NCBI GenBank assembly: GCA_050950145.1
Contig: JBMNHB010000001.1
Span: forward strand, 300,458 to 364,457
Direction of reading: 5' to 3'
Length of the DNA: 64,000 nucleotides
Source of the DNA: Candidatus Dojkabacteria bacterium
Lineage (GTDB): Bacteria > Patescibacteriota > Dojkabacteria > SC72
Below the pieces are notes generated by a model. It saw only the letters and a program-made list of their open reading frames with translations, made no database searches and was not told the origin of the DNA. A program made the translations under genes and the position numbers. Within the stretch, counting starts at the first letter, position 1. Every line of letters starts with the position of its first letter. This document shows positions 4,820 to 62,137 of the stretch, piece by piece.

Positions 4820-6583
4820 ATGGTAATATTGCATATGATCAATATTGATATGACTGCACCAAGGCAGAAACCAAGAGAAACAGTTGTAAGAAGACATACT
4901 GTTTCTAGAAATGGTTCTATGCAGAAGCAGAAAGGTAAAATAAAGGTTTTTAGGTTAATTCTTCTCTCTTTTCTTTTTTCAGCACTGTTTCTATTTTTTG
5001 AAAATAGGGATAATTTTCTTTATGCGGTAAGGTATCTATTTAATATAGGAAGAAGTGCAGTTGTATACGATACATATACAATATCTTTTGAAGATGATGT
5101 CCCTGAGGAATTTAAAAATTTGATGGTAGAAAATTTAAGTAAGGTGGTGTTTAATGAAAAACCTAGGTTTAAGTTTAAAGATGGTAGAAGTGATTTAGTG
5201 ATAGGGATGGAGGAGAAAGAAGGTAGCAAGGTGGTGTTTAGTCAGGACTTTATTCCAGTGGGGCATATGTATTCTCTTACAACAAACTTAACAGATGATG
5301 ATATTAAGAGTAAGAATCTGTACATGATTGATGGTAGATTGAAGGAGCAGATTCAGAGTCAGATTGATGCAGATATCACTGTGTTAGATGGGGGAATTGA
5401 TAGTTTGGTAGCTAAACTAAAAGAGAGTGATGATAATATTGGTTTATTGTCTTTTGATTCTTTGGATTACAGAGTTAAGATAATACCTTTTAATGAAAAG
5501 TATTACTTAGATGATCAGGAAGGCGCTGTTAAGTTTAGATTTTACTCTTCCGTAAAGCCAGAAGATGAATTAATTATCTCAATTATCGGTATCCATATGG
5601 GTTTTGGTGGTAGTGGTGTTATGCAAAAAAGTTTGTTGACAAAATTGAATATGGGAGGTGTTGTTGCTATTGCAAGGAATTTAGCATTTAAGATGGAAGC
5701 TGCAAAAGAAAATGATTATGCTGCTAAGTATATAGGGGATTTTTTGGCAGATGCTGATCTTACACATGTATCTAATGAGGTTTCTTTTGTACCTGGTTGT
5801 ACTCCAACAAGAAGTATGGCTTTTTGTTCTAATCCTAAATATATTGAGACTTTAAAGAAGAGTGGTGTGGATATTGTTGAGTTAACAGGTAATCATAATA
5901 ATGACTATGGAGCTAAGTATAGTGCGAGTACAATAGAGACATATAAAGAATTGGGTTGGGATTATTTTGGTGGTGGACTTGATTTAGAAGATGCAAGAAA
6001 GATTTTGTATAAGGAGGTAAATGGTACTAAGATAGCATTTCTTGGCTATAACTATTACGATAGTATATTAAATAATCCAGGGCCATTAGCTGGAACTAAT
6101 AAATCTGGAGCGAATCCTTACAGTGAGGAGAAACTTAAGAGGGATATAGAAGAGGCTAAGAAGAATGCAGATGTTGTAATTACAAGTTTTCAATTTCAAG
6201 AGTGTTACTGTTATCCTGATGGTGATGTTATTTTTCCTCCTTGTTATAAACCTGTTGCTGTTCCTGATCAAAGAGGTACATTTAAGAAAGCTATTGATCT
6301 AGGAGCAGATATTGTAGTAGGTACTCAGGCGCATCAACCTCAGACATATGAGTTGTATAAAGATGGGGTTATATTCTATGGTTTAGGCAATCTCTTCTTT
6401 GATCAATATATTTGGATAGGAACCAGACAGGGTCTTGTGCTTACACATTATTTCTATGAAGGTAAGTATATTCAAACGAAAGTAGTTCCCATATATATGG
6501 ATAAGGATTTTAGAGTAAGGCTTGCAACTAAAGAACAGGGTGATTTACTATTGAAATTATTAAAGGATGCTAGAGATAAGTAA
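4820..6583 (+). CDS. CapA/PgsA-family metallophosphatase-like capsule (poly-gamma-glutamate) biosynthesis protein with long N-terminal membrane-anchored extension
   Basis: The C-terminal 300 aa carry the PGA_cap pattern ('GNHNNDYG', 'DVVITSFQFQE', 'GADIVVGTQAHQPQ', 'GLGNLFFDQ'). The N-terminal ~290 aa are unassigned and contain a TM helix. Confidence 0.65.
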   Translation: MVILHMINIDMTAPRQKPRETVVRRHTVSRNGSMQKQKGKIKVFRLILLSFLFSALFLFFENRDNFLYAVRYLFNIGRSAVVYDTYTISFEDDVPEEFKNLMVENLSKVVFNEKPRFKFKDGRSDLVIGMEEKEGSKVVFSQDFIPVGHMYSLTTNLTDDDIKSKNLYMIDGRLKEQIQSQIDADITVLDGGIDSLVAKLKESDDNIGLLSFDSLDYRVKIIPFNEKYYLDDQEGAVKFRFYSSVKPEDELIISIIGIHMGFGGSGVMQKSLLTKLNMGGVVAIARNLAFKMEAAKENDYAAKYIGDFLADADLTHVSNEVSFVPGCTPTRSMAFCSNPKYIETLKKSGVDIVELTGNHNNDYGAKYSASTIETYKELGWDYFGGGLDLEDARKILYKEVNGTKIAFLGYNYYDSILNNPGPLAGTNKSGANPYSEEKLKRDIEEAKKNADVVITSFQFQECYCYPDGDVIFPPCYKPVAVPDQRGTFKKAIDLGADIVVGTQAHQPQTYELYKDGVIFYGLGNLFFDQYIWIGTRQGLVLTHYFYEGKYIQTKVVPIYMDKDFRVRLATKEQGDLLLKLLKDARDK

Positions 6584-6584
6584 G

Positions 6585-9194
6585 TTATTGTAGTACTTTT
6601 ATAAATACTCCACTTTGATTTCCGATTTTTAACTCTTCTCCATATATTTCATTTTTATCATTCTTTATTGTATATTCAAAAAGACTTTTACTATCTTGCC
6701 ACTGTCCTATCTGTTTTATCTTATTAAACTCTAGATTTTTTAATATTTCATATGATGTATATCCTTTGTTATCAAACAGATAGGAAGGAACTAGATTCCA
6801 TCCTGACAACTTTGATATATCCAGACTTGCTCCTCTATAGCCAGTTAAATTAAATTCTGCTTCTTGTAGCGATATAACCATATATGATTTGTTTGAATCT
6901 AGTTTAAAATCATTGCCATATATCTTTCCATCTTGATACTTTACAACTTGAATCCATTCTCCTGATTTGTATTCTCCAACAGCAATAGCTCTTTTATCTG
7001 ACATATTGATTAAATCGTATGCTGTTTTAGGATGTAGTGTCTGAGTAGTATCTAATACTTCTACTGGATTAATGAAGCTAACCCCCTTCTTAAGTTGATA
7101 TTTAGCATTTGTGTTCTTACAATTTGTAATTGGAATATCTTCTCTAAGTACTCCATTACAATCGGATGGCATTTTTACGGAGAGTTTATTATCTTCAAAA
7201 CAACATATTTTTTCTGTTTTTATGATTTTTTTATCTACAGTACATGTATATCCATGTTCAGCTTCTAATCTAGTTTTGTAATTATTTCCTTCTTTATCGT
7301 AGAGACATATACAACCGTTAGGGTCTTCACAGTATCTATCTTTATTAGTCACGACCATTTCATCTCTATTTCCATCAGGAGGGTTAGGATCTGGATTAGG
7401 TGTAGGACTAGGGCTAGGGCTAGGACTAGGCGTAGGTACAAGACTATCTCCACAACATTGATGCTTGTATTCACTAGACTTTTCTCCTGCAACCATTATG
7501 GTTTCATCGTTTAATAAACATGTTTGCCCTTTGTAGATATGGACATTATTTTTGTTATCGTAATAATTGCATGTGCATCCATCATCTGTGTTACATGTCC
7601 CTTCGGGTTTTAGTTTATTTAGTGTTATTGATCCCCTTGGACTTACTTTACATTTTTCACCACATAGTGAAAGTCTTTTGTAATTCTCAGGTTTATTATT
7701 TTCATCTCTTTTTTCAAAACAATCACACCCTCCACGATCAGTACATATCTCTCCTTCTATTATATCAGTATTACCACTTGGATCATCATTACAACCAGTA
7801 CTACTTCCAAGAACATTATTCTTTTCTATGTCATTGTTATCACAATTTTTATATATGGTATTCATCTTTTGATTAGAATGATCACATATATAACTACTAG
7901 ATCTTTCTATCTTAAAAGGAAATTCAATATTATTATAACCACTAGTACCATCAAGTAGTACATGTTTGTAATTTCTAAGAGTTTTTGAATAATACAACAA
8001 ACCAGAAACAAGATCTCTTTTAGAATTACATCCCTTTCCTTTTTTATCTCCTAATACAAACTTTGTAGCCCATTGAATATTTTTAAAGAGTTTGGAATTT
8101 TTATTAAGAGAAAACTCACTATTAATATCCTTATCAGAAATCCAATTCTCTATTCTATTAGGAGTAAAGGTATCTAATGTACAAGTATTAATATACTCTT
8201 CTTTTGCAACATTATTTAATAACCAATCTAATTGTCCTCTAAAATCAAAATAGATATTTGAGTTTTTAATTCCAAAATCTTTTAAGTTTTGTACTCCATC
8301 TTTATCAGCTTTTGCATAATTACTAGCACCTGTTTCCTGAAACCATATTGTTAATGGAAATGCGGGGTCTACACCTTTCTCCAAAGAAGTACAATATACA
8401 TCATCAAAACATTCATTTGCATAATTACCTTTTCTACAATTATTGGTATATATCCCATTTTCAGCTTTATCTACAAATGTTGCTTTGTCTATTGCAGTAT
8501 GATTGTAATTATTCACTTTTATATCAACCATACAGTTAGAACCAGTTTTTTCTCTTGCAGCATATATCTTAGGTGCAAGAATATTATGAATTAATGCAAC
8601 TAACTCTTCTTCTGTAGTAATCTGAGCATATTCTCTTTGTTTATATTCTTCTCCTTGATTATCAAATGCCCATGTTCCATGTTTTGCTGTGTCCAACATA
8701 ATATTATCTCCACTATCCAAAGACATTAAAACTAACTTATCAATATTAGTATCTCCAGTTACTATATTAGGAGTTATTACTTCTTCCTTTATCTCTTTTG
8801 TTTTAAAACTAAATTCTTTTTTCTCTATACCTTTAGCAGAATCAATTTTAAATATATATCTTGTATTTGGTTCTAGATTCTCAATTTTGGTAATGTATAG
8901 ATTAGAGTTAGATATATTATCCTTGTAAAGTAGTACATCATTAAATGCTTGTGTATATGGTCCTGTAAATGTTTCTTTTTTGTATGAAAGTATTTGGAAG
9001 TCTTCTTCCTTTACCTTCCAATATATCTGTGTACTATCAGTAGTAGTATTAGCAACAACAATATCAAATGGTGTTCTTAGAGATTTTTGATAATTAAAAT
9101 CACTTCTTAGTAGAAGTAATGATGCTCCTAGAGAGAGAAACACACCTAAAATAAATAGCATAAGTATGTTTTTCTTTTTGATAGGTTTTTCCAC
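6585..9194 (-). CDS. Large secreted multidomain protein: FN3-like N-domain, lysozyme/GH73-like middle domain, Cys-rich region, Pro/Thr/Ser linker, conserved C-terminal ~240-aa domain
   Basis: Signal/TM at N-terminus. 'PLTIWFQETGASNYA...DFGIKN' resembles the GH73 core. 'TPSPSPSPSPTPNPDPNPP' linker. The C-terminal 240 aa are ~98% identical to the downstream paralog 9232..11382. Confidence 0.6.
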   Translation of the reverse strand: MEKPIKKKNILMLFILGVFLSLGASLLLLRSDFNYQKSLRTPFDIVVANTTTDSTQIYWKVKEEDFQILSYKKETFTGPYTQAFNDVLLYKDNISNSNLYITKIENLEPNTRYIFKIDSAKGIEKKEFSFKTKEIKEEVITPNIVTGDTNIDKLVLMSLDSGDNIMLDTAKHGTWAFDNQGEEYKQREYAQITTEEELVALIHNILAPKIYAAREKTGSNCMVDIKVNNYNHTAIDKATFVDKAENGIYTNNCRKGNYANECFDDVYCTSLEKGVDPAFPLTIWFQETGASNYAKADKDGVQNLKDFGIKNSNIYFDFRGQLDWLLNNVAKEEYINTCTLDTFTPNRIENWISDKDINSEFSLNKNSKLFKNIQWATKFVLGDKKGKGCNSKRDLVSGLLYYSKTLRNYKHVLLDGTSGYNNIEFPFKIERSSSYICDHSNQKMNTIYKNCDNNDIEKNNVLGSSTGCNDDPSGNTDIIEGEICTDRGGCDCFEKRDENNKPENYKRLSLCGEKCKVSPRGSITLNKLKPEGTCNTDDGCTCNYYDNKNNVHIYKGQTCLLNDETIMVAGEKSSEYKHQCCGDSLVPTPSPSPSPSPTPNPDPNPPDGNRDEMVVTNKDRYCEDPNGCICLYDKEGNNYKTRLEAEHGYTCTVDKKIIKTEKICCFEDNKLSVKMPSDCNGVLREDIPITNCKNTNAKYQLKKGVSFINPVEVLDTTQTLHPKTAYDLINMSDKRAIAVGEYKSGEWIQVVKYQDGKIYGNDFKLDSNKSYMVISLQEAEFNLTGYRGASLDISKLSGWNLVPSYLFDNKGYTSYEILKNLEFNKIKQIGQWQDSKSLFEYTIKNDKNEIYGEELKIGNQSGVFIKVLQ
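6601..7316. repeat. Copy 1 of a ~716-bp near-identical direct repeat (3' ends of the two tandem paralogs)
   Basis: Direct base-by-base comparison with 9249..9963 shows only a handful of substitutions and one 1-bp indel. Identity decays gradually 5' of 7316 and 9963. Confidence 0.85.
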
Positions 9195-9231
9195 TATTAC
9201 ATAATATCAAATATATTTCTTGAATAGTAAT

Positions 9232-11382
9232 CTATTGTATTACCTTTATAAATATTCCATTCTGATTTCCGATTTTTAGCTCTTCTCCATATATTTCATT
9301 TTTATCATTCTTTATTGTATATTCAAAAAGACTTTTACTATCTTGCCACTGTCCTATCTGTTTTATCTTATTAAACTCTAGATTTTTTAATATTTCATAT
9401 GATGTATATCCTTTGTTATCAAACAGATAGGAAGGAACTAGATTCCATCCTGACAACTTTGATATATCCAGACTTGCTCCTCTATAGCCAATTAAATTAA
9501 ACTCTGCTCCTTGTAGCGATATAACCATATATGATTTGTTTGAATCTAATTCAAAATCATTGCCATATATTTTTCCATCTTGATACTTTACAACTTGAAT
9601 CCATTCTCCTGATTTGTATTCTCCAACAGCAATAGCTCTTTTATCTGACATATTGATTAAATCGTATGCTGTTTTAGGATGTAGTGTCTGAGTAGTATCT
9701 AATACTTCTACTGGATTAATGAAGCTAACCCCCTTCTTAAGTTGATATTTAGCATTTGTGTTCTTACAATTTGTAATTGGAATATCTTCTCTAAGTACTC
9801 CATTACAATCGGATGGCATTTTTACGGAGAGTTTATTATCTTCAAAACAACATATTTTTTCTGTTTTTATGATTTTTTTATCTACAGTACATGTATATCC
9901 ATGTTCAGCTTCTAATCTAGTTTTGTAATTATTTCCTTCTTTATCGTAGAGACATATACAACCATCATGATCTGCACAATATCTATCTTTATCAGTCACG
10001 ACCATTTCGTCTTTAATACCATCTCCTCCAGAAGGTATTGGTTTATCTGGGTCTGTTGGAGTGGAGTCTGTTGATTCTCCTGAGCATGTTCTATACTTTC
10101 TGTTTTGAGTTTCTTTAGATCTATCACATGAGTTTGCATTAGGTGGAATTCTCCATGGCCATTTGGGTAATTCTTTACCAGTCATCTGATAAAACATCCA
10201 CTCTAAGTATCCAATATACTCAACTCCAGCACCTATTCCATCGTTATCTTCTGTACATACATATCCTTTCCAGTATTTTGTTGCCCATATATGTTCTGGA
10301 CTATATTTTTTCTTAAGTATATCTATTTCTTGGTCTGATTTTTCACCTCTTCTTCTGCAAGCTTCCTCAAACCAATCATCTGCATATGACTCTATAGCAA
10401 CATTTTTAAGAAAATAATTAATTTGTGTAGTAAAATCATTCTTCCATTCTGCTACATGGATTCCAAAGTCTTCAACTACAGGGAATTGTGCATACATGCT
10501 AGCAGCAGATTCGTGCATCCAAACAGTTAATGATATTGCAGGATTAAGTCCAGCGTTTATTGATTTACAATAAGCATCAGCATAACATTCTCTTAAATAG
10601 TCTCCTTTACAATATGAAAAACGTTCTCCTTCTGTAAGTGCTAATGATTGTTCTAAGGTAGGTAGGTATCTAGTATCCTTTATTACAACATTCGTCATAC
10701 AATTAGCTCCTGTAGCTGCATACACATTGTTTTTTAGTGCAGTATTTAATTTTCTCTTTAATTCAAATTTTGGAATATATTGTGCATATTTAATTTCTTT
10801 GTAGGTTTTACCTTTTAAATCTAGTGCCCAGTTTCTGTTTTTGTTAGCAAAAACCATATACTTCTCTCCTTCGGCATCAATTAGAATAAAGTCACCAGGG
10901 TCAGAGCTTCCTGTTTCTATCTGTGGTAGTTTAACTTGTTCATTAATATTTTTAGTTATAAAAGTAAGATTATAATCCCATATGTGTTGTGGAGAATTAA
11001 TTCTAAATGTATATTCTGTATTCGGTTTTAGATTTGATATTGTTGATTTGTATAAGTCTTCTTCATCGGAAATATTTGTGTATATTCTAAAATCATTCTC
11101 ATACTTGTATGGAGCTGTACTTTCTTTTTCTTTGTATGTTAGAACTTCAATATTTTTAGTTTTGGTTTTCCAATATACTTCTGCTTGATTGGTTGAGATA
11201 TTAGCAACTATTATGTCATAGGGTTTTTCTTCTAAAATTTGAAATGTTTTTCTGTTTTGAACTATTAGATAAATATTAGCAATTACTAATAAAAGACCAA
11301 GGAGAAAGAAGTATATAATATTTTTTGATTTTCTAGTTTTTTTCATTTCTCTATGATACCAAATATATATTATCTTGTGCAC
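9232..11382 (-). CDS. Large secreted multidomain protein, tandem paralog of 6585..9194 (variable N-terminal and lysozyme-like domain, near-identical C-terminal domain)
   Basis: N-terminal TM. 'ISLTVWMHESAASMYA...DFGIH' lysozyme/GH73-like signature. C-terminal 240 aa near-identical to 6585..9194 at DNA level. The true start may be the internal Met (MKKTRK...). Confidence 0.6.
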   Translation of the reverse strand: MHKIIYIWYHREMKKTRKSKNIIYFFLLGLLLVIANIYLIVQNRKTFQILEEKPYDIIVANISTNQAEVYWKTKTKNIEVLTYKEKESTAPYKYENDFRIYTNISDEEDLYKSTISNLKPNTEYTFRINSPQHIWDYNLTFITKNINEQVKLPQIETGSSDPGDFILIDAEGEKYMVFANKNRNWALDLKGKTYKEIKYAQYIPKFELKRKLNTALKNNVYAATGANCMTNVVIKDTRYLPTLEQSLALTEGERFSYCKGDYLRECYADAYCKSINAGLNPAISLTVWMHESAASMYAQFPVVEDFGIHVAEWKNDFTTQINYFLKNVAIESYADDWFEEACRRRGEKSDQEIDILKKKYSPEHIWATKYWKGYVCTEDNDGIGAGVEYIGYLEWMFYQMTGKELPKWPWRIPPNANSCDRSKETQNRKYRTCSGESTDSTPTDPDKPIPSGGDGIKDEMVVTDKDRYCADHDGCICLYDKEGNNYKTRLEAEHGYTCTVDKKIIKTEKICCFEDNKLSVKMPSDCNGVLREDIPITNCKNTNAKYQLKKGVSFINPVEVLDTTQTLHPKTAYDLINMSDKRAIAVGEYKSGEWIQVVKYQDGKIYGNDFELDSNKSYMVISLQGAEFNLIGYRGASLDISKLSGWNLVPSYLFDNKGYTSYEILKNLEFNKIKQIGQWQDSKSLFEYTIKNDKNEIYGEELKIGNQNGIFIKVIQ
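9249..9963. repeat. Copy 2 of the ~716-bp near-identical direct repeat
   Basis: See 6601..7316. Offset between copies ~2648 bp. Confidence 0.85.
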
Positions 11383-11467
11383 ATTCTTTTTAGGGTGATT
11401 ATAGTAGCTAAGCTGGGAATGGAAAAAACCATACCACCTACTTACAAATTCTAATGAAAAAGGAAGA

Positions 11468-11542
11468 TGGCTCCGCGACCAGGACTCGAACCTGGAACCA
11501 AACGGTTAACAGCCGTTCGCTCTACCATTGAGCTATCGCGGA
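11468..11542 (-). tRNA. tRNA-Asn (anticodon GTT), CCA encoded
   Basis: Reverse complement TCCGCGATAGCTCAATGGTAGAGCGAACGGCTGTTAACCGTTTGGTTCCAGGTTCGAGTCCTGGTCGCGGAGCCA folds as a cloverleaf. Anticodon loop is CTGTTAA. Confidence 0.85.
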
Positions 11543-12042
11543 TTAACAAGTCTATTATATCCCCTTAACCACTCTAACTGCAATAGCTCTTCTTCTTTAA
11601 CTTCAAATATCTCTTTTAAAAGCTCTTTCCCATCTTTTGTTCTAGTAGGTAGTGTCAATATTTTACACTTTTTCCCATCTATCTCAATATCCTTTTGTAC
11701 AATAATATCCTTAATATCTTCCCTTTTTCTCTTTTCTTCTTTTAATAATTCTCCATATATAAAGAGAGTTTCATAATCATTTAAATCTAAATCCCATACG
11801 TTTACTTCTTTACTGATAATCCTTGCAACTATGTTATCTACAATAAAAAATCTTTGTGTTGGTTTTTTATAATCATAAGATTTTTCTAGATATATGGAAG
11901 CTTCATATTCAGAAGGACAATCTATTTTTTCAAAAAAATCACCATACTCTCTCATAACAAAGATGGAATCATCCTCTATATAATCTCTACAAGCATTGCA
12001 ATAGGGATATTCATCATAATCTTCATAATCTATTTTACTCAT
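11533..12042 (-). CDS. Hypothetical protein (acidic, CxxC-containing)
   Basis: 169-aa ORF with protein-like composition. Its TAG stop lies within the first bases of tRNA-Asn on the same strand. Confidence 0.4.
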   Translation of the reverse strand: MSKIDYEDYDEYPYCNACRDYIEDDSIFVMREYGDFFEKIDCPSEYEASIYLEKSYDYKKPTQRFFIVDNIVARIISKEVNVWDLDLNDYETLFIYGELLKEEKRKREDIKDIIVQKDIEIDGKKCKILTLPTRTKDGKELLKEIFEVKEEELLQLEWLRGYNRLVNPR

Positions 12043-12101
12043 TGGACACAGTATTAAACTTAACTATATAATGTAACACATCTAATTTAAGTAGTACAAT
12101 A

Positions 12102-12671
12102 ATGAAAAGAGAAGATGTTAGATTTACCTTTCTAGGTATGGATTCTAGTAATGCTTTAAAAGAATATGCATTAGATAAGATATCAAAAAGAGCAGATTTA
12201 TTAGATAAAGCTATATCCATGGAAGTCGCTTTTAAAGAACATAAAGCAAGTAGGGGAGTAAAGAATGACTTTAGGGTAGATATTTCCGTAGATTTACCAG
12301 AAACGCCAATTAGAATAACAGAGAGAGGAGAAGAGATGTATGCAAATATTGATAGAGCTGTAGATGTTCTTGTAAGGAGATTAAATAGGTATGTAGATAT
12401 GAAAGATCATTGGGGTGGTACTAAAGCATGGGAAGTAATGGATATTGATACAGATACAGAGGTAGAAGAAGATCAATATTCAAACTATGTTCCTAAAATA
12501 GCTAAGAGAAAAAAGATAGAAGATATGTCTCCACTTGAGGAAGGTGAAGCTATTGAGAGAATGGAGATGTTAGGATATGATTCATTCCTTTTCAGAAGTA
12601 AGGCAACAGATAAAATATCATTGGTGTATAAAAGAAAAGATGGTTCATACGGAATAGTAGAACCATCTTAA
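12102..12671 (+). CDS. hpf: Ribosome hibernation promoting factor (long HPF/RaiA)
   Basis: N-terminal S30AE pattern ('RFTFLGMDSSNALKEYALDKISK'). C-terminal dimerisation domain 'YDSFLFRSKATDKISLVYKRKDGSYGIVEP'. Confidence 0.85.
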   Translation: MKREDVRFTFLGMDSSNALKEYALDKISKRADLLDKAISMEVAFKEHKASRGVKNDFRVDISVDLPETPIRITERGEEMYANIDRAVDVLVRRLNRYVDMKDHWGGTKAWEVMDIDTDTEVEEDQYSNYVPKIAKRKKIEDMSPLEEGEAIERMEMLGYDSFLFRSKATDKISLVYKRKDGSYGIVEPS

Positions 12672-12691
12672 CCTTAGAATCTTTTTAATAA

Positions 12692-13489
12692 CTATTTCTT
12701 AAAAAGAGTTCCTAATATTTTCAAGAAACCATATTTTGGTTTTGCAGTACTATTGTTTTGAATTTTATACTCTGTCCTCTTTTCTGCTAACCAATCAGCT
12801 TGGATTGATTGAACTTGACTGATTAGGTATTGTTCTTTGGTTTCTTCTTTATGCTTCTCGTAATCTAACTGTTCTCCTTCTTCTAATGCCTCTGTTTCTG
12901 TTGGGAAGATGATACTACTGTATTGATTGAAGAACTCTTTTAAATCATCATCTGTATATTTAACCTCTGGTCCTATAACTTTAGTATACAGAGATTGAGT
13001 TTTCAATTGTTCTCTTAATTCTTTCTCAGTAACATTACTTGCCTTAAGAGCTGCCTGATATGCTTCTTCACCACCAATTCTTTTAATTACAGTATCAAGC
13101 TTATCCTGAATCTCTTCCTCTGTTACTTTAACTTCCATCTTCTTAGCTTCTTTTTCAATGATAGAGTCATTAATCAAGGTATCAGCAATAGATGCTCCAT
13201 ATGCATTTTCTAAAGTTTCGTGCCATTTTGCTTTTGAGATTCTCTGTCCATTAACAACAGCTACACTATAATCGTTGTTAAGATACTGTACTCCTAAATC
13301 TAAGAGTGTTACTACTCCAATTATTGCAACAACAATTCCTAATATTTTAAAAATCTGTTTATAAATAGGAGAAGATAGTTTAGGCTTTTTAATAGTAACT
13401 TTCTTTGTTACCTTCTTTGCAGGAGCCTTTTTCCCTGTTGTTTTCTTTGGGGTAGTTTTTGTTTTGACAATTTTTTTAGTCCTTGCCAT
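12692..13489 (-). CDS. Membrane-anchored SurA-N-like chaperone domain protein (no PPIase domain evident)
   Basis: Lys-rich N-tail, one TM helix, then SurA_N-like segment ('VAVVNGQRISKAKWHETLE...'). Confidence 0.45.
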   Translation of the reverse strand: MARTKKIVKTKTTPKKTTGKKAPAKKVTKKVTIKKPKLSSPIYKQIFKILGIVVAIIGVVTLLDLGVQYLNNDYSVAVVNGQRISKAKWHETLENAYGASIADTLINDSIIEKEAKKMEVKVTEEEIQDKLDTVIKRIGGEEAYQAALKASNVTEKELREQLKTQSLYTKVIGPEVKYTDDDLKEFFNQYSSIIFPTETEALEEGEQLDYEKHKEETKEQYLISQVQSIQADWLAEKRTEYKIQNNSTAKPKYGFLKILGTLFKK

Positions 13490-13568
13490 GTAAATATGAT
13501 AAAAATAATTTAGATTATATTATCTTGTAGTTTAACAGAATATTGGGAAATTGGGAAGGGGAGTTATT

Positions 13569-14927
13569 TTATAATGCTTGCAGGTGGACATAAAGTGTTT
13601 TATTCCCATCATCATGTTGTAGGTAGGCCCATGTAGCTCCATATTGATCTACATAGTAATTTACAACACCACTAGTAGATGCATATACTCTAGCTCCTTC
13701 ACCATTAAGATATGCAACATTCCAGTTAGATAACCCCATATTTTTTCTAGTGTTTAATATATTATCAACTATTGGACATAGACCGTAGGGGACAATATAT
13801 GTGTCCCATGATTGGTTACCCTGTGCTTTACTTACCATATCTATAGCATTATGCCCTCCCCAAAAATCATTTGTAACTAGGCCACTAACAAGTGGAGCAG
13901 TGTACAATCCACTTGTTACATATTGTCCATAACCTGTCCCTCCTAAATAACCACCTGATGAGGGTTCCAAAATGACATTGCGAGAATTTCTTAATTGGTA
14001 GTGTAAGTGAGAACCAAAGGAACATCCTGTATGTCCTTGTAAACCTATAACTTCTCCTTTTGCTACTCTTCTACCATTCTTAAAATATCCTTGTTCTGCA
14101 AGTCTAATAATTAAATCAGCAGTTGCCTTCTCAGATTCGCTTAATGCTGTAGAAATCTGTTTTAACTCTGCAAGATATGTAGCTTCTCTTCTTTTTGATT
14201 GTGCTAATAGGTTAGCTTGTTCATTTTTTTGTCCATCTAATTCAGCTTTTACTTCTTCTAGTTTCTTTCTCTCTTCTTCAATTTCGCTCTTTTTTACTTC
14301 CATCTCTTTTTTATCATCTAGAAGTTTTGCCTCTTCTACTTCTAATTCTACAATTGAACTAGAATATCTCTCCAGAGCCTTTAAATCCTTACTTCTAGTT
14401 GTAGTTAAATATTTACTTCTTCTTAAAATGGAAGAGATATTTTTGATATCTAGAAATATTTCAAATTGATTAATAAAAGAAAACTTGTATGATTCTGTAA
14501 TCCTGTTATTTACTGTAACACCAAGGACATTTACCTCTTGTTTTAAGAGAGAAATGTTATCCTCTTTCTTTTCAATCTCTTTCTTTAAAATCTGTATCTC
14601 AATGTCCTGTTTTGCTATCTCTATCTGAAGTTCTTTAATCAAAGTTTCATTCTGAGCAATTTGTCTCTGTATATATTTTATTTTCTCATTTAAAGAGAGT
14701 TGTTGATACTCCTCGTTTTTTAATTTCTTTGTTAAATTTTGTTCTTGTTTATGCAGATCATCCTCTTGCTTTTTGTAGTATTCGTAACATTCTAGAAGGG
14801 TCATACCAGCAGGACACTGTGCTTCAGCTGAAACTTTCTTACTGTTGTATGAAACCAAAAGAAAGACAGATAGTAAAGTGGTTATTGTTATTGAAATTAT
14901 CAAACCTATTCTTTTCATACTATCCAT
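13569..14927 (-). CDS. EnvC-like coiled-coil M23 peptidase family murein hydrolase activator
   Basis: Long coiled-coil N-half. M23 motif 'GHTGCSFGSHLHYQL'. Sits immediately downstream of ftsE-ftsX as in ftsEX-envC operons. Confidence 0.75.
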   Translation of the reverse strand: MDSMKRIGLIISITITTLLSVFLLVSYNSKKVSAEAQCPAGMTLLECYEYYKKQEDDLHKQEQNLTKKLKNEEYQQLSLNEKIKYIQRQIAQNETLIKELQIEIAKQDIEIQILKKEIEKKEDNISLLKQEVNVLGVTVNNRITESYKFSFINQFEIFLDIKNISSILRRSKYLTTTRSKDLKALERYSSSIVELEVEEAKLLDDKKEMEVKKSEIEEERKKLEEVKAELDGQKNEQANLLAQSKRREATYLAELKQISTALSESEKATADLIIRLAEQGYFKNGRRVAKGEVIGLQGHTGCSFGSHLHYQLRNSRNVILEPSSGGYLGGTGYGQYVTSGLYTAPLVSGLVTNDFWGGHNAIDMVSKAQGNQSWDTYIVPYGLCPIVDNILNTRKNMGLSNWNVAYLNGEGARVYASTSGVVNYYVDQYGATWAYLQHDDGNKTLYVHLQAL

Positions 14928-14932
14928 TTATT

Positions 14933-15859
14933 CTAATCTAAATATTTCTTAACTGCACTAAGACTACTTATTACACCTATTAATACTCCTGTAAAGACAT
15001 GTATTAAATAATAACTGATTAAGAAGAGAATATTAACAGGTCTTAAACATGTTAAACCTAAATCTTTAAGTATTTGATTAAATGAAAATGAAAAATCAGG
15101 ATTACTCATTAGGGATGATATTACTATGTAAAAAGGTATGATTATCAGTGTAGCAGCTAATACGCCACCAAGTGCTCCATAGTACAATCCTTCGAAAATG
15201 TAAGGAATTTTTATGTACTTATCAGGACTACCAACAACATTCATAATCTTTATCTCTTCCTTATGAGAATTAATATTGAATCCGATTGTTATTCTAATCA
15301 ACGAGAAAGCGATAACTCCGAGTGCAGAAATTAAGATAACCGAAACTACCTTTATAGTATTGGATAGAGACTCTAATGTTTTAACAACATCTGGGAAGTA
15401 GAAAATATCATCTATGGAAGAATTAATCTCTTTTTCTCTCTCAATCTCTTTGATAAGGTTAAGGAGATCTTCAACACTCTTTGCTCTAATTTCTAAACTT
15501 GGGGGAAGAGAATCAGCTGTTACTGTTGCTATTAAATCAGGATTATCAGAATAATAATCTTTGTAAATTGCTAAAGCTTTCTCTTGATTAACATACTCTA
15601 TATTCTCTATTGTATTAGGATCATCCAAACTCTCTTTAAGTGTCAGAATATCTGCTTCTTTTGTATCTTTTTTAAAGAAAATAATTACTTCTGCTTTCTT
15701 CTCGTAATATTTAATAGCTTTTTGTGAAATAATACCAATACTTATAAAGAAGGAAGATATTAGTAATACTATTGTTGAAACTAGAATAGTTGAAAGAGAT
15801 AGAAATCTATTTCTCTTCATATTCTTTTTTGTTGTTTCTACTAATTTACTTTTTTCCAT
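14933..15859 (-). CDS. ftsX: Cell division permease FtsX
   Basis: Four-TM topology with periplasmic loop. Position after ftsE. Family-typical length. Confidence 0.8.
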   Translation of the reverse strand: MEKSKLVETTKKNMKRNRFLSLSTILVSTIVLLISSFFISIGIISQKAIKYYEKKAEVIIFFKKDTKEADILTLKESLDDPNTIENIEYVNQEKALAIYKDYYSDNPDLIATVTADSLPPSLEIRAKSVEDLLNLIKEIEREKEINSSIDDIFYFPDVVKTLESLSNTIKVVSVILISALGVIAFSLIRITIGFNINSHKEEIKIMNVVGSPDKYIKIPYIFEGLYYGALGGVLAATLIIIPFYIVISSLMSNPDFSFSFNQILKDLGLTCLRPVNILFLISYYLIHVFTGVLIGVISSLSAVKKYLD

Positions 15860-16847
15860 TTTTTTTACTTTCTTTATTATTTAAATACTCTTTTAAGAAG
15901 CTTTCAAGTTTTTCTCTCTCCTTATCAGTTATTTTTAAGTTATCTAAGTCATCATCTGTTAAATTAAGGATAAGGTCAACTGAGTTAATTTTTGCATTAA
16001 GGAATTTTTCTAATATCTTCTTATCTAACTCTTCTAACTCTTTATCATATATTGGCTTCTCTTCTAATTCTTCGTCTAACTCATCTCCTATTTTAATATT
16101 ACTATCAATAGTAGTAGTTTCTTTCTTTGGTTTCTTTATAGTATCATAGTCCCCTTCGTCGCTATCAGAGATGACTTTCCCTTTTTCCATTCTAATAACT
16201 CTCTTTTTCATTTTGTTTACTAATTCTCTATCATGACTAATGACTAATACTGTTGTTCCGCCTCTATTAATACTGTTTAGAATATCTAAAACTTGGAATG
16301 AAGTCTCAGGATCCAGATTCCCTGTTGGTTCATCTGCAACAAGTAAATCAGGATTATTTGCTAGTGCTCTTGCTATAGCACCTCTTTGTTGCTCTCCTCC
16401 TGATAGTTGTACTGGGAAAAGATCTTTTCTGTCTTGTAATTTAACTAATTCTAGTAAATATTCAGTTGTTTCTTTAATCTCTTTCTCTGTTTTACCTAAA
16501 ATTTCTAGTGCAAACTGAATATTTTCTTCTAATGTTTTACTCTCTAGTAATCGTAAGTCTTGAAAAACCATTCCTAATCTCTGTCTATACTTAGGTAAAA
16601 GCTTGGTTGGAAGTTTAGGTACTTCAATTTCATCAAAAATAATGTTTCCAGAGGTAGGAAGTTCTTCTCTTATCAACAATCTCATTAGTGTAGTTTTACC
16701 TGCTCCTGATGGACCCACAAGAAATGAAAACTCTCCTTTGTCTATTGAAAAGGAAACATCTTCCAGTGCAACGATATTTTCATTATATTTTTTGGTTACT
16801 TTATCGAATATTAACATGGCAGTTCTATCAATCATATATCTTACCAT
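15846..16847 (-). CDS. ftsE: Cell division ATP-binding protein FtsE with ~110-aa charged C-terminal extension
   Basis: Walker A 'GPSGAGKTT', ABC signature 'LSGGEQQR', Walker B 'LLVADEPTGNLD'. Unusual D/E/K-rich C-terminal tail. Confidence 0.9.
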   Translation of the reverse strand: MVRYMIDRTAMLIFDKVTKKYNENIVALEDVSFSIDKGEFSFLVGPSGAGKTTLMRLLIREELPTSGNIIFDEIEVPKLPTKLLPKYRQRLGMVFQDLRLLESKTLEENIQFALEILGKTEKEIKETTEYLLELVKLQDRKDLFPVQLSGGEQQRGAIARALANNPDLLVADEPTGNLDPETSFQVLDILNSINRGGTTVLVISHDRELVNKMKKRVIRMEKGKVISDSDEGDYDTIKKPKKETTTIDSNIKIGDELDEELEEKPIYDKELEELDKKILEKFLNAKINSVDLILNLTDDDLDNLKITDKEREKLESFLKEYLNNKESKKNGKK

Positions 16848-20439: not shown

Positions 20440-21168
20440 ATGATAATATTAAGCAAGATGAGAGTCAAAAAATTTTTAACAATTATTTTTAGTTTTCTGT
20501 TTTTCTTTTTCTTTTCAAGTTCGGCTATTCTTGCAGCTGAACCGTCATTTTCTTTTTTCCCAGCTGGGGGGATAATTATAGATAAATCTAAAGGTTTTTC
20601 TGTTGATGTGTTAATAGATACAGCAGGACAGGAAGTTATGTCTGCAAAGTTTGTTGTTCTTTTTGATCCAACAGTTTTAAGATTAACTAAAGCTGAGAGA
20701 AATAGTACACTCTTTAGTCAGTGGCCAGAGGAGGAATCATCAATAGATAATGATAACGGAGTTGTTATGCTAGGAGGTTTTACACAGAGTGGTACAGGTT
20801 CTCCATATAAAACTTCAGGCAATCCTGACATTATAGCTAGACTTACATTTGAGATTCTTAAGGAGAAAGAGACATATTTAGATTGGGAGTATGATACAAA
20901 TAATGGTGTTTTTGATACCAATATTATGCAAGAGGGTAGTCCTCCTATGAATATTTTGACTAAGAAACCTTCTGCTGTAACATTCCAAATTGGTGGTAGT
21001 GCAGTTCTTAAGCCAGATGTTGCCACAGGTATCTTTGATTCCAAATATCTGATTATAGTCGGTGCTGTTCTTCTACTCTTTGGTGGTTTTATGATATTTA
21101 CTAGACCTAATTTCTACAGGCGAGGTAGAGGTACAGTCGTAGTTATTGGAGATAATGAAAACAGATAA
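20440..21168 (+). CDS. Secreted cohesin-like domain protein with C-terminal TM anchor
   Basis: Signal peptide. 'FSVDVLIDTAGQEVMSAKFVVLFDPTVL' follows the cohesin beta-sandwich pattern. C-terminal hydrophobic helix plus basic tail. Confidence 0.35.
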   Translation: MIILSKMRVKKFLTIIFSFLFFFFFSSSAILAAEPSFSFFPAGGIIIDKSKGFSVDVLIDTAGQEVMSAKFVVLFDPTVLRLTKAERNSTLFSQWPEEESSIDNDNGVVMLGGFTQSGTGSPYKTSGNPDIIARLTFEILKEKETYLDWEYDTNNGVFDTNIMQEGSPPMNILTKKPSAVTFQIGGSAVLKPDVATGIFDSKYLIIVGAVLLLFGGFMIFTRPNFYRRGRGTVVVIGDNENR

Positions 21169-22611: not shown

Positions 22612-22612
22612 A

Positions 22613-22689
22613 TGCGGGAGTAGTTCAGTTGGCTAGAACGACACATTGCCAATGTGTAGGTCGCGGGTTCGACCCCCGTCTCCCGCTCC
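22613..22689 (+). tRNA. tRNA-Gly (anticodon GCC), CCA encoded
   Basis: GCGGGAGTAGTTCAGTTGGCTAGAACGACACATTGCCAATGTGTAGGTCGCGGGTTCGACCCCCGTCTCCCGCTCCA. U73 discriminator. 1 nt after tRNA-Phe. Confidence 0.9.
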
Positions 22690-42628: not shown

Positions 42629-42702
42629 AGCGAGAGACGGGATTCGAACCCGCGACCTTCTCCTTGGGAAGGAGACATTCTAGCCAACTGAACTACTCTC
42701 GC
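42629..42702 (-). tRNA. tRNA-Gly (anticodon CCC), no encoded CCA
   Basis: Reverse complement GCGAGAGTAGTTCAGTTGGCTAGAATGTCTCCTTCCCAAGGAGAAGGTCGCGGGTTCGAATCCCGTCTCTCGCT. Loop is TCCCAAG. U73. Confidence 0.85.
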
Positions 42703-42767
42703 ATATAGGTATTCTACTAAAAAAAAGAGGGTATTCCTACCCCCTTTCTTTTATAGATCTAAAGAAA

Positions 42768-49347: not shown

Positions 49348-49550
49348 AGGTCTGGCCTAGGTCTGCCCCATGTTAATCTATATTTAATCATCTATATTCC
49401 TTTCTTATATAAGTCTTTTTTGATAAAAATCTTTTTATTTTGTAAGAATTTTGGTCTAGGGAGACATAGGATATTGTAATTACTTAGTAGTAGGAGACCT
49501 TTTGGGTGGATTAAAAAGTTATGAATCAGGGGCAGACCTAGGCCAGGCCT
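49348..49550. mobile_element. MITE-like GC-rich element with ~22-bp terminal inverted repeats (copy 1)
   Basis: Left end aggtctggcctaggtctgccccatgttaa. Right end aaaagttatgaatcaggggcagacctaggccaggcct, which is its reverse complement at 19/20. AT-rich ~140-bp interior. Second copy at 61932..62137. Confidence 0.6.
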
Positions 49551-49575
49551 GGTGTGGTTGTGGTATGATGTAAAT

Positions 49576-61931: not shown

Positions 61932-62137
61932 AGGTCTGACCTAGGTCTGCCCCATGTTAAGAAAATTTTAATCTCTAAGTTATGTACTTTCAAAAAGGTC
62001 TCCTAGTCCTCGGCTCAGGTAGTATGTACGTGTTACAAGTAAAAACAGAGGAACATGTACCCCAAAAAGGTATGTAAGAAGCAAAATTTCTCACATATTA
62101 AAAAGTTATGAATGAGGGGCAGGCCTAGGCCTGGCCT
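61932..62137. mobile_element. MITE-like GC-rich element with terminal inverted repeats (copy 2)
   Basis: Left end aggtctgacctaggtctgccccatgttaa. Right end aaaagttatgaatgaggggcaggcctaggcctggcct. Same TIRs and subterminal 'attaaaaagttatgaat' as copy 1. Interior diverged. Confidence 0.6.

Follow-up and report, generated by a model that had tools for sequence, protein, structure and literature searches.

Sequence evidence for recombination in the shared 3' repeat of two predicted lysozyme-like surface-protein genes of Candidatus Dojkabacteria

Two neighbouring genes of a Candidatus Dojkabacteria bacterium, located on the minus strand of contig JBMNHB010000001.1 and referred to here as gene A and gene B (Table 1), encode proteins whose N-terminal parts are only distantly alike, while their C-terminal parts are almost the same; the question that this locus raises is how two such different heads have come to share one tail, and what the proteins may do. 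Our analysis is concerned with the 64-kb stretch of DNA that contains both genes (the window), and with the other strains and the related proteins to which it can be compared. With a probability of approximately 65%, we read the locus as a pair of surface-displayed, lysozyme-like paralogues, whose tails are kept alike through exchange between the two copies of a repeat, and of which A is strain-variable. A and B are tandem paralogues of a family that we have seen only in bacteria of the Candidate Phyla Radiation (CPR), the group to which this organism belongs; B is the orthologue of a gene that occurs as a single copy in related species.

The comparison of the window with itself has revealed a single long repeat, 798 bp in length and ungapped, with 25 mismatches between its two copies (96.9% identity), which spans approximately the last 260 codons of both genes; its boundaries are sharp, and beyond them the nucleotide identity of A and B drops to the random level of 20-40%. 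The repeat is composed of a core of 684 bp (6633-7316 in the copy of A), where the two copies differ at 6 positions (99.1% identity), and of two shoulders, one of 60 bp with 11 mismatches (82% identity) and one of 54 bp with 8 mismatches (85%). The core mismatches form two clusters of three, at the repeat offsets 452/471/474 and 514/521/532. The initial annotation of the window had placed a segment of approximately 99% identity at 6601-7316 and 9249-9963, followed by abrupt divergence; the near-identity is real (10 mismatches in 716 bp, 98.6%) and the divergence is indeed abrupt, but the repeat is slightly longer and slightly less uniform than had been described. Upstream of the repeat, the two proteins can be aligned over approximately 510 residues, with 30% identity.

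The two parts of the genes differ sharply in their synonymous (dS) and nonsynonymous (dN) divergence, according to Nei-Gojobori estimates: between the heads of A and B, dS is 1.2 (saturated) and dN is 0.65, while in the core of the tail, dS is 0.03 and dN is 0.007; between B and its counterparts P0002 and P0003, from the closest other species, dS is 0.5-0.95 in head and tail alike. Purifying selection as the cause of the resemblance of the tails is excluded, since the identity extends to the synonymous sites. Likewise ruled out is a recent duplication of the whole gene, followed by fast divergence of the head: the dS of the heads is saturated, and the head of A stands no closer to the clade of B than to the remaining clades.

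The neighbour-joining trees and identity matrices of 10 family members are incongruent between head and tail. In the head tree, A is a lone, deep branch, 32-36% identical to every other member; in the tail tree, the tail of A, which is 97% identical to that of B, is nested in the clade of B, P0002 and P0003. No relative with more than 39% identity to the head of A was found among the sequences of an exhaustive search (clusters from approximately 15 billion proteins). As judged from these trees, the tail of A belongs to the lineage of B, and its head to an isolated, old lineage. A tract that is identical at synonymous sites, is bounded by saturated divergence and has a phylogeny that disagrees with that of the rest of the gene is what gene conversion leaves behind, and the comparisons indicate that the 798 bp at the 3' ends of A and B have been made alike by recombination, and neither by selection nor by an error of assembly; the recent gene conversion that the initial annotation had proposed is borne out by the dS values and the trees.

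The tandem arrangement is present in three independent records: two from JGI (3300028561, referred to as L003, and 3300036953, referred to as L004), and a metagenome-assembled genome (MAG) of Candidatus Dojkabacteria at NCBI, whose proteins MGI6484309.1 and MGI6484308.1 are encoded next to each other on a contig of 748,838 bp. Both junctions, i.e. the one from B to A (tail, 37-nt spacer and head of A) and the one from A to the neighbouring PGA_cap gene, have been assembled in the window, L003 and L004, which come from different samples, and the copy-specific shoulders tie each copy of the repeat to its own flanks. Within both genes, these three sequences differ from one another at no positions other than the six single-nucleotide polymorphisms (SNPs) of the core. 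If the alleles of the window are called B (B-type) and A (A-type), and the two SNP clusters are called block 1 and block 2, the B copy reads BBB/BBB and the A copy AAA/AAA in the window, both copies read BBB/AAA in L003, and both read BBB/BBB in L004; the cores are identical within each of the two JGI records and differ between them. Further recombinant combinations of the alleles are found in the protein clusters of A and B.

At least 20 contigs from other strains, originating from ENA (assembled with MEGAHIT), JGI, Logan and one NCBI MAG, have gene B running directly into the PGA_cap gene, with gene A absent, so gene A is a strain-variable gene that is bracketed by a direct repeat. The head of B has no mismatch to the window over 1,323 nt in the four contigs that were checked. 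Three haplotypes occur: S1 (at least 13 contigs, repeat alleles read in 8) has a B-type left shoulder, the alleles BBB/AAA and an A-type right shoulder; S2 (4 contigs, 3 read) has the same shoulders on either side of BBB/BBB; and S3 has a B-type left shoulder, BBB/AAA and a third allele from offset 704 onward. The third tail allele, located at 3575-4461 of L006 (CAYPAR010000053.1) and also seen in L026-L028, has 13 private differences from offset 704; on one side it is joined to a B head identical to that of the window, and on the other to a PGA_cap gene with 6.7% divergence, which implies that two strains have crossed over within the terminal 100 bp of the gene.

The single-gene contigs (compared for L015-L022) are approximately 100% identical to the window at positions 5,200-15,600, approximately, and 80-95% identical outside this block of approximately 10 kb, which contains ftsX, the M23 peptidase gene, the SurA-like gene, HPF, tRNA-Asn, an open reading frame (ORF) of 169 amino acids, B and the PGA_cap gene; since the identity is confined in this way, the contigs represent different strains that share a recently exchanged block. 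The block suggests that strains have recently recombined here, or that the locus has been at the centre of a gene-specific sweep.

A crossover between the two copies would produce precisely these single-gene haplotypes; the locus would, equally, have had this form before a Campbell-type integration of gene A. It is here that several observations weigh against our reading. The single-gene strains may be ancestral, with A inserted, and not the products of deletion: all seven related-species loci, whose downstream sequence is readable, have one gene, and in five of them, as well as in the sister strains, this gene has the PGA_cap gene as its downstream neighbour (ORFs that agree with PGA_cap in size and direction being counted too), which favours the single gene as the ancestral state. 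Taken alone, the window shows that the exchange is recent, and not that it continues. Graph (De Bruijn) assemblers traverse one repeat edge twice, giving both copies the same sequence; such a collapse of the repeat could also yield the identical cores of L003 and L004, which, together with the shuffling of the alleles, may be partly products of assembly and argue only weakly for repeated conversion. Loop-skipping in assembly could in principle be the source of the single-gene contigs; judged by the way in which MEGAHIT builds its unitigs, these would normally end at a branch of this kind, except where the head of A had a much lower coverage.

The explanation that competes best with repeated exchange, which we consider unlikely but worth serious attention, is a one-off swap or segmental duplication, where the tail of A has been replaced once by that of B, or A has arrived by a single integration of the Campbell type through the tail, and where the shuffling of the SNPs is phasing noise of the assembler. 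It agrees with the six fixed core differences and the diverged shoulders of the window, and with the possibility that the identical cores of L003 and L004 are assembler artefacts; against this, the two tiers of identity, i.e. 99-100% in the core and 82-85% in the shoulders, are hard to obtain from one event, and haplotypes S1 and S2 carry both block-2 alleles in an unambiguous single-copy context, which implies that both alleles circulate and have been placed in both copies.

Turning to the products of the two genes, the predicted domains follow the same order in both proteins: a membrane anchor, an FN3-like domain, a small β-rich segment, a middle domain of approximately 220-250 residues, one or more Cys modules and a C-terminal domain of approximately 210 residues. 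The middle domain is the part that we consider enzymatic. Among 118 aligned middle domains, the motif W-x-x-E-[ST]-x-A-S-N-Y-x7-D-F-G-I is conserved, with W, E, S and G invariant, and with D, F, I, Y, Q, the S/T position and one Cys nearly so; A keeps all of the invariant motif residues (W..ET.AS.Y...DFGI); the signatures ESxAS...FGI of the initial annotation are present in both proteins, in the form of ES/ET...DFGI. The putative catalytic residue of B, Glu279 (Glu291 in the numbering of the 716-residue protein), is found in 118 of 118 sequences and is located at the end of helix 68-79 of the predicted model, as is the case for the catalytic position of GH73 and GH23 enzymes.

The model of the middle domain has a lysozyme-like fold: it can be superposed on solved GH73 domains, which are its top structural match (13-14% identity), while Slt70, MltE, AtlA and the muramidase effectors of type VI secretion are ranked later, and the GH23 structures score below GH73. 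At the level of sequence, which also weighs against our reading, neither GH73 or GH23 nor any other Pfam, NCBIfam or PDB entry matches this domain, even at E ≤ 10; the libraries (Pfam to E 10, NCBIfam and PDB sequences) were searched for both the middle and the C-terminal domain with single sequences and with profiles of 5-22 sequences. In particular, hmmscan of six members at E ≤ 10 gave no match to Glucosaminidase (PF01832), the PDB profile search gave 0 matches, and, again to the detriment of our reading, the hhalign alignments of the 118-sequence profile with FlgJ of Escherichia coli (E 0.6) and Slt70 are not significant (E 0.3-0.6), with the ES motif in register. Compared with the GH73 family (PF01832; the Clostridioides difficile endolysin domain 8yxk, Streptococcus pneumoniae LytB 7pj3, FlgJ and AtlA), the fold is thus shared in the model and the profile is not; the region that may correspond to the YATD motif of GH73, an equivalence that is tentative, reads IWATKYW or WGAKFW, i.e. 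W-(A/G)-(T/A)-(K/R), and the conserved Cys and the Asp before FGI are specific to the family of A and B. Compared with the GH23 lytic transglycosylases and goose-type lysozymes (GH23/SLT, PF01464; MltF, MltD, Slt70 and Ra-ChiC), there is no profile match either, and the GLMQ and AYNxG motifs are absent.

We conclude that the middle domain represents an as yet unrecognised sequence family of the lysozyme-like superfamily, whose likeness to GH73 and GH23 lies in the modelled fold and not in profile membership; the GH73/lysozyme-like core of the initial annotation stands with regard to the fold, with GH73 as the closest structure, and falls with regard to the family profile. Both the motif and the model suggest that it is probably an active peptidoglycan glycosidase, and other CPR proteins have the same middle domain fused to Peptidase_M23.

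The C-terminal domain, which forms the bulk of the shared cassette, is composed of a CC...C...C lead-in and two repeats of approximately 85 residues (in B, at 9478-9750 and 9235-9474), whose homology to one another is evident from hhalign (probability 97%, E 7e-11). The signature of repeat 1 is L-K-K-G-x-N-F-I ... T-A-x-x-L ... F-x-N-G-x-W ... G-x-D-F-x-L-x-P-G-x-x-Y, and that of repeat 2 is G-W-N-L-V ... Q-x-A-x-W ... S-x-F-x-Y-T ... Y-G-x-D ... G-x-F-I-K. Nothing meaningful was found for this domain in Pfam (E to 10), NCBIfam and PDB sequence searches, and its model, which is of moderate quality (predicted local distance difference test, pLDDT, 66), has no structural matches, a further point against our reading; the remark of the initial annotation that the domain resembles nothing nameable holds in sequence and in structure.

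An exhaustive search with hidden Markov models (HMMs) has returned 831 cluster representatives at E ≤ 1e-3; a word-indexed protein search had suggested a tiny family of 6-8 relatives, an impression that the HMM search has corrected. Among the 155 best family matches, the middle and the C-terminal domain occur together in 38, the middle domain alone in 81 and the C-terminal domain alone in 29; 17 of these 29 are full-length FN3 proteins with an unrelated middle. In the closest C-terminal-only variants, P0028 and P0031, the anchor, FN3 domain, β segment, Cys modules and double repeat are kept, and extra Cys modules take the place of the lysozyme-like domain. This distribution portrays the C-terminal domain as an independent module that is always located at the end far from the membrane anchor; since it is modular and distal, it may be a binding or targeting domain that brings both heads to the same ligand (the wall or S-layer of the cell itself, or the surface of a host).

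That the proteins are non-catalytic surface adhesins or scaffolds, with the lysozyme-like domain kept as a glycan-binding relic, is improbable. P0028 and P0031 dispense with this domain and retain the FN3, Cys and C-terminal parts, and no sequence match to active families exists, as an adhesin would have it; the strict invariance of W, E, S and G, and the near-invariance of D, F, I, Y and Q, over 118 diverse sequences, the position of the modelled Glu at the canonical helix end, and the fusions to M23 peptidases elsewhere are difficult to reconcile with a relic.

Still less probable is a cassette system that resembles the polymorphic toxins, where a constant C-terminal targeting module is attached to diversifying lytic heads directed at the host of an episymbiont, as the initial annotation had proposed under the notion of a polymorphic toxin in reverse. 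The CPR lineage, the strain-variable gene A with its unique head, and the occurrence of the C-terminal module with different middles across CPR are compatible with it, as are the lysozyme homologues reported, in a statement of PMC12102498 that cites its reference 37, to be essential in the epibiotic growth of a Saccharibacterium. As in Rhs, CDI and MafB, a constant module stands beside a variable one in a protein that is secreted or located at the surface, and copies recombine with each other; unlike in these systems, the order of the two modules is inverted, the parts that vary are homologous enzymes in the same domain order and not unrelated toxins, immunity genes and orphan cassettes are absent, and the proteins are membrane-anchored. 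The window contains two copies only and no orphan cassette; no immunity-like small gene follows either copy, the next gene downstream being the conserved PGA_cap gene; the N-terminal membrane anchor argues against a delivered toxin; and the gene is single in all seven related loci, has the PGA_cap neighbour in five of them, and its head and tail co-diverge in the six relatives where a tree could be built. The heads are homologous and belong to a single, co-evolving gene in related species, and the proposal of diversifying heads is not upheld.

Lastly, that the second copy is an artefact of assembly (a repeat that was expanded, or two strains joined into a chimera) is hardly credible, even though the repeat exceeds the length of short reads and many contigs show one gene, as both junctions are assembled in the window, L003 and L004, the genes adjoin on the 748,838-bp contig, the shoulders are copy-specific and, given the junctions, the tandem is the only linear path through the graph.

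Returning to repeated exchange between surface-displayed paralogues, we propose that both products are membrane-anchored, that their lysozyme-like heads and distal C-terminal modules lie outside the cell, and that the sites at which they would cut the glycan strands of peptidoglycan are those to which the C-terminal module binds. Through gene conversion, the two direct repeats would keep their core identical, so that both heads retain one and the same module; now and then, such an exchange would end in a crossover that deletes or regenerates gene A, which would thus be a strain-variable accessory hydrolase.

With regard to the remaining features of the pair (Table 1), the mechanical ORF of gene B starts at GTG 11382 (9232-11382, 716 residues), but the ATG at 11346 (704 residues), as in the homologues and in the JGI and NCBI gene calls, is the likelier start. 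The initial annotation had described two co-directional ORFs of 869 and 716 residues, which are both present, on the minus strand; the word "giant" is overstated for proteins of 704-869 residues. The spacer has no terminator-like site and a promoter-like site (TTTCCA-16-TATAAT, 11425-11398) is located upstream of B, after the tRNA-Asn gene; B and A are, thus, probably co-transcribed as one operon.

The N-terminal hydrophobic segment of 20 residues is present in both proteins, and would be the signal anchor that had been proposed, from which the topology is also predicted. The FN3-like domains of A and B score 26.4 and 29.0 bits with PF16656, just below the curated cut-off of 30, while distant family members exceed the cut-off (FN3/Pur_ac_phosph_N, PF00041/PF16656; 31.0, 41.1 and 42.5 bits). 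The small β-rich segment has a weak, repeated match to an Ig-like adhesin repeat. The Cys modules, probably of the disulfide type, have 4-5 Cys in approximately 50 residues and occur once in B, three times in A and one to three times across the family; the extra Cys-rich region and PS/PN linker that had been noted in A do exist (residues 455-610), the Cys part being further copies of a module that all members have in variable number.

Table 1. Features of the A-B locus. Positions are those of the window; residue numbers (aa) refer to the protein concerned.
Feature	Positions	Strand	Remarks
PGA_cap (CapA-like) gene	4820-6583	plus	convergent with A
Gene A	6585-9194	minus	869 aa, GTG start; protein identical to MGI6484308.1
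Gene B	9232-11346	minus	704 aa from ATG 11346; protein identical to MGI6484309.1
B-A spacer	9195-9231	minus	37 nt; terminator-like site absent
Repeat copy in A	6579-7376	minus	overlaps the convergent PGA_cap gene (3' end) by its last 5 nt
Repeat copy in B	9226-10023	minus	start: 9 codons ahead of the last Cys module; end: 6 nt after the stop codon
Hydrophobic segment, B	11260-11319	minus	aa 10-29, preceded by a start rich in Lys/Arg; mean Kyte-Doolittle value 2.65 (19 residues)
Hydrophobic segment, A	9108-9167	minus	
FN3-like domain, B	10948-11226	minus	aa 41-133
FN3-like domain, A	8793-9074	minus	
Small β-rich segment, B	10777-10935	minus	aa 138-190
Small β-rich segment, A	8619-8780	minus	
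Lysozyme-like middle domain (predicted), B	10075-10740	minus	aa 203-424; putative catalytic Glu279 at 10510-10512
Lysozyme-like middle domain (predicted), A	7833-8585	minus	aa 204-454; putative catalytic Glu287 at 8334-8336
A-specific insert	7365-7832	minus	two extra Cys modules (aa 455-584) and Pro/Ser/Asn linker (aa 585-610)
Last 4-Cys module, B	9862-10011	minus	aa 446-495; first element of the cassette
Last 4-Cys module, A	7215-7364	minus	
C-terminal domain, B	9235-9861	minus	aa 496-704
C-terminal domain, A	6588-7214	minus	

The window has a G+C content of 32%, and the genes that surround the pair are ordinary chromosomal genes. The single-copy orthologue is found in conserved synteny amid housekeeping and cell-division genes, near ftsE, ftsX and an M23 peptidase gene. 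In the window, the ftsE/ftsX/M23-peptidase cluster (13569-16847, minus strand), followed by a SurA_N-like gene (12692-13489), is located 2-5 kb from the pair, and the related species L001 has these genes in the same order; a tRNA-Asn(GTT) gene (11468-11542, minus strand) lies between B and the unannotated ORF of 169 amino acids (11533-12042, minus strand), whose last 10 nt overlap the tRNA. The conserved synteny would fit an autolysin at least as well as the attack on, or attachment to, a host that the initial annotation had considered, for which the Saccharibacterium homologues of PMC12102498 would speak. We favour the view that B takes part in wall remodelling, and that the role of A is accessory and possibly related to interaction.

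Elsewhere in the window, the Rfam scan has returned only tRNAs, and two intergenic elements (49349-49549 and 61933-62136) contain paired, G+C-rich inverted repeats of 21-29 nt (GGTCTGRCCTAGGTCTGCCCC...), which enclose approximately 150 nt of unrelated, A+T-rich sequence, just upstream of the plus-strand ORFs that start at 49552 and 62154; the arms give 4 matches, with 0 expected by chance, belong to no Rfam family, and look like parts of an element resembling miniature inverted-repeat transposable elements (MITEs) or of a long-stem element. A protein of 242 residues (20440-21168, plus strand), with a cohesin match (PF00963, E 2e-6, above the curated threshold), is encoded next to the genes for BacA (undecaprenyl-diphosphatase) and a GT4 glycosyltransferase. 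The similarity between 22612-22687 (plus strand) and 42629-42704 (minus strand), of 76 nt with 84% identity, is that of two tRNA-Gly genes (GCC and CCC).

The mechanism of gene conversion is itself textbook material, and a homogenised terminal segment is already known from paralogous surface-protein genes. In Lactobacillus acidophilus, slpA and slpB share an identical C-terminal third that binds the wall. The locus of A and B resembles the babA and babB genes of Helicobacter pylori, which evolve in concert by segments (PMC3444412, PMC4552749), in that diverged functional regions are combined with terminal segments that are near-identical through intragenomic recombination, and in that strains differ in the paralogue that is present. 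It differs in that A and B are tandem direct repeats, where a crossover would delete a gene and not swap loci, in that the homogenised part is a distal extracellular domain and neither a β-barrel nor a known wall anchor, and in that the organism is a CPR bacterium. What is new is the lysozyme-like family, which lacks annotation and which we have found in CPR bacteria only, together with its double-repeat module and the gain or loss of a second head at the level of strains.

CPR bacteria (Patescibacteria) are believed to spend their lives attached to other cells, and little is known of the enzymes that act where the cells meet. The present findings point to a large lysozyme-like family, seen here only in CPR and missed by current profile libraries, which is carried on a conserved surface scaffold with a double-repeat domain. 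A single species also offers a natural "experiment", whose strains do or do not have, on one and the same tail, a second head that differs greatly from the first; the locus may serve as a marker of strain-level recombination in metagenomes of the digester and wastewater type, and mutants of the Glu residue, as well as the C-terminal domain, as constructs for biochemistry. In a bolder version, to which we give little credence, the C-terminal double repeat has a new fold that recognises a surface polymer of a host or partner, A places a second lytic head of other specificity on the same targeting module, and its gain and loss through the repeat act as a switch of host range or attachment in an episymbiont; if this were true, the wider CPR family (831 clusters) would serve in general as a set of tools with which host walls are breached.

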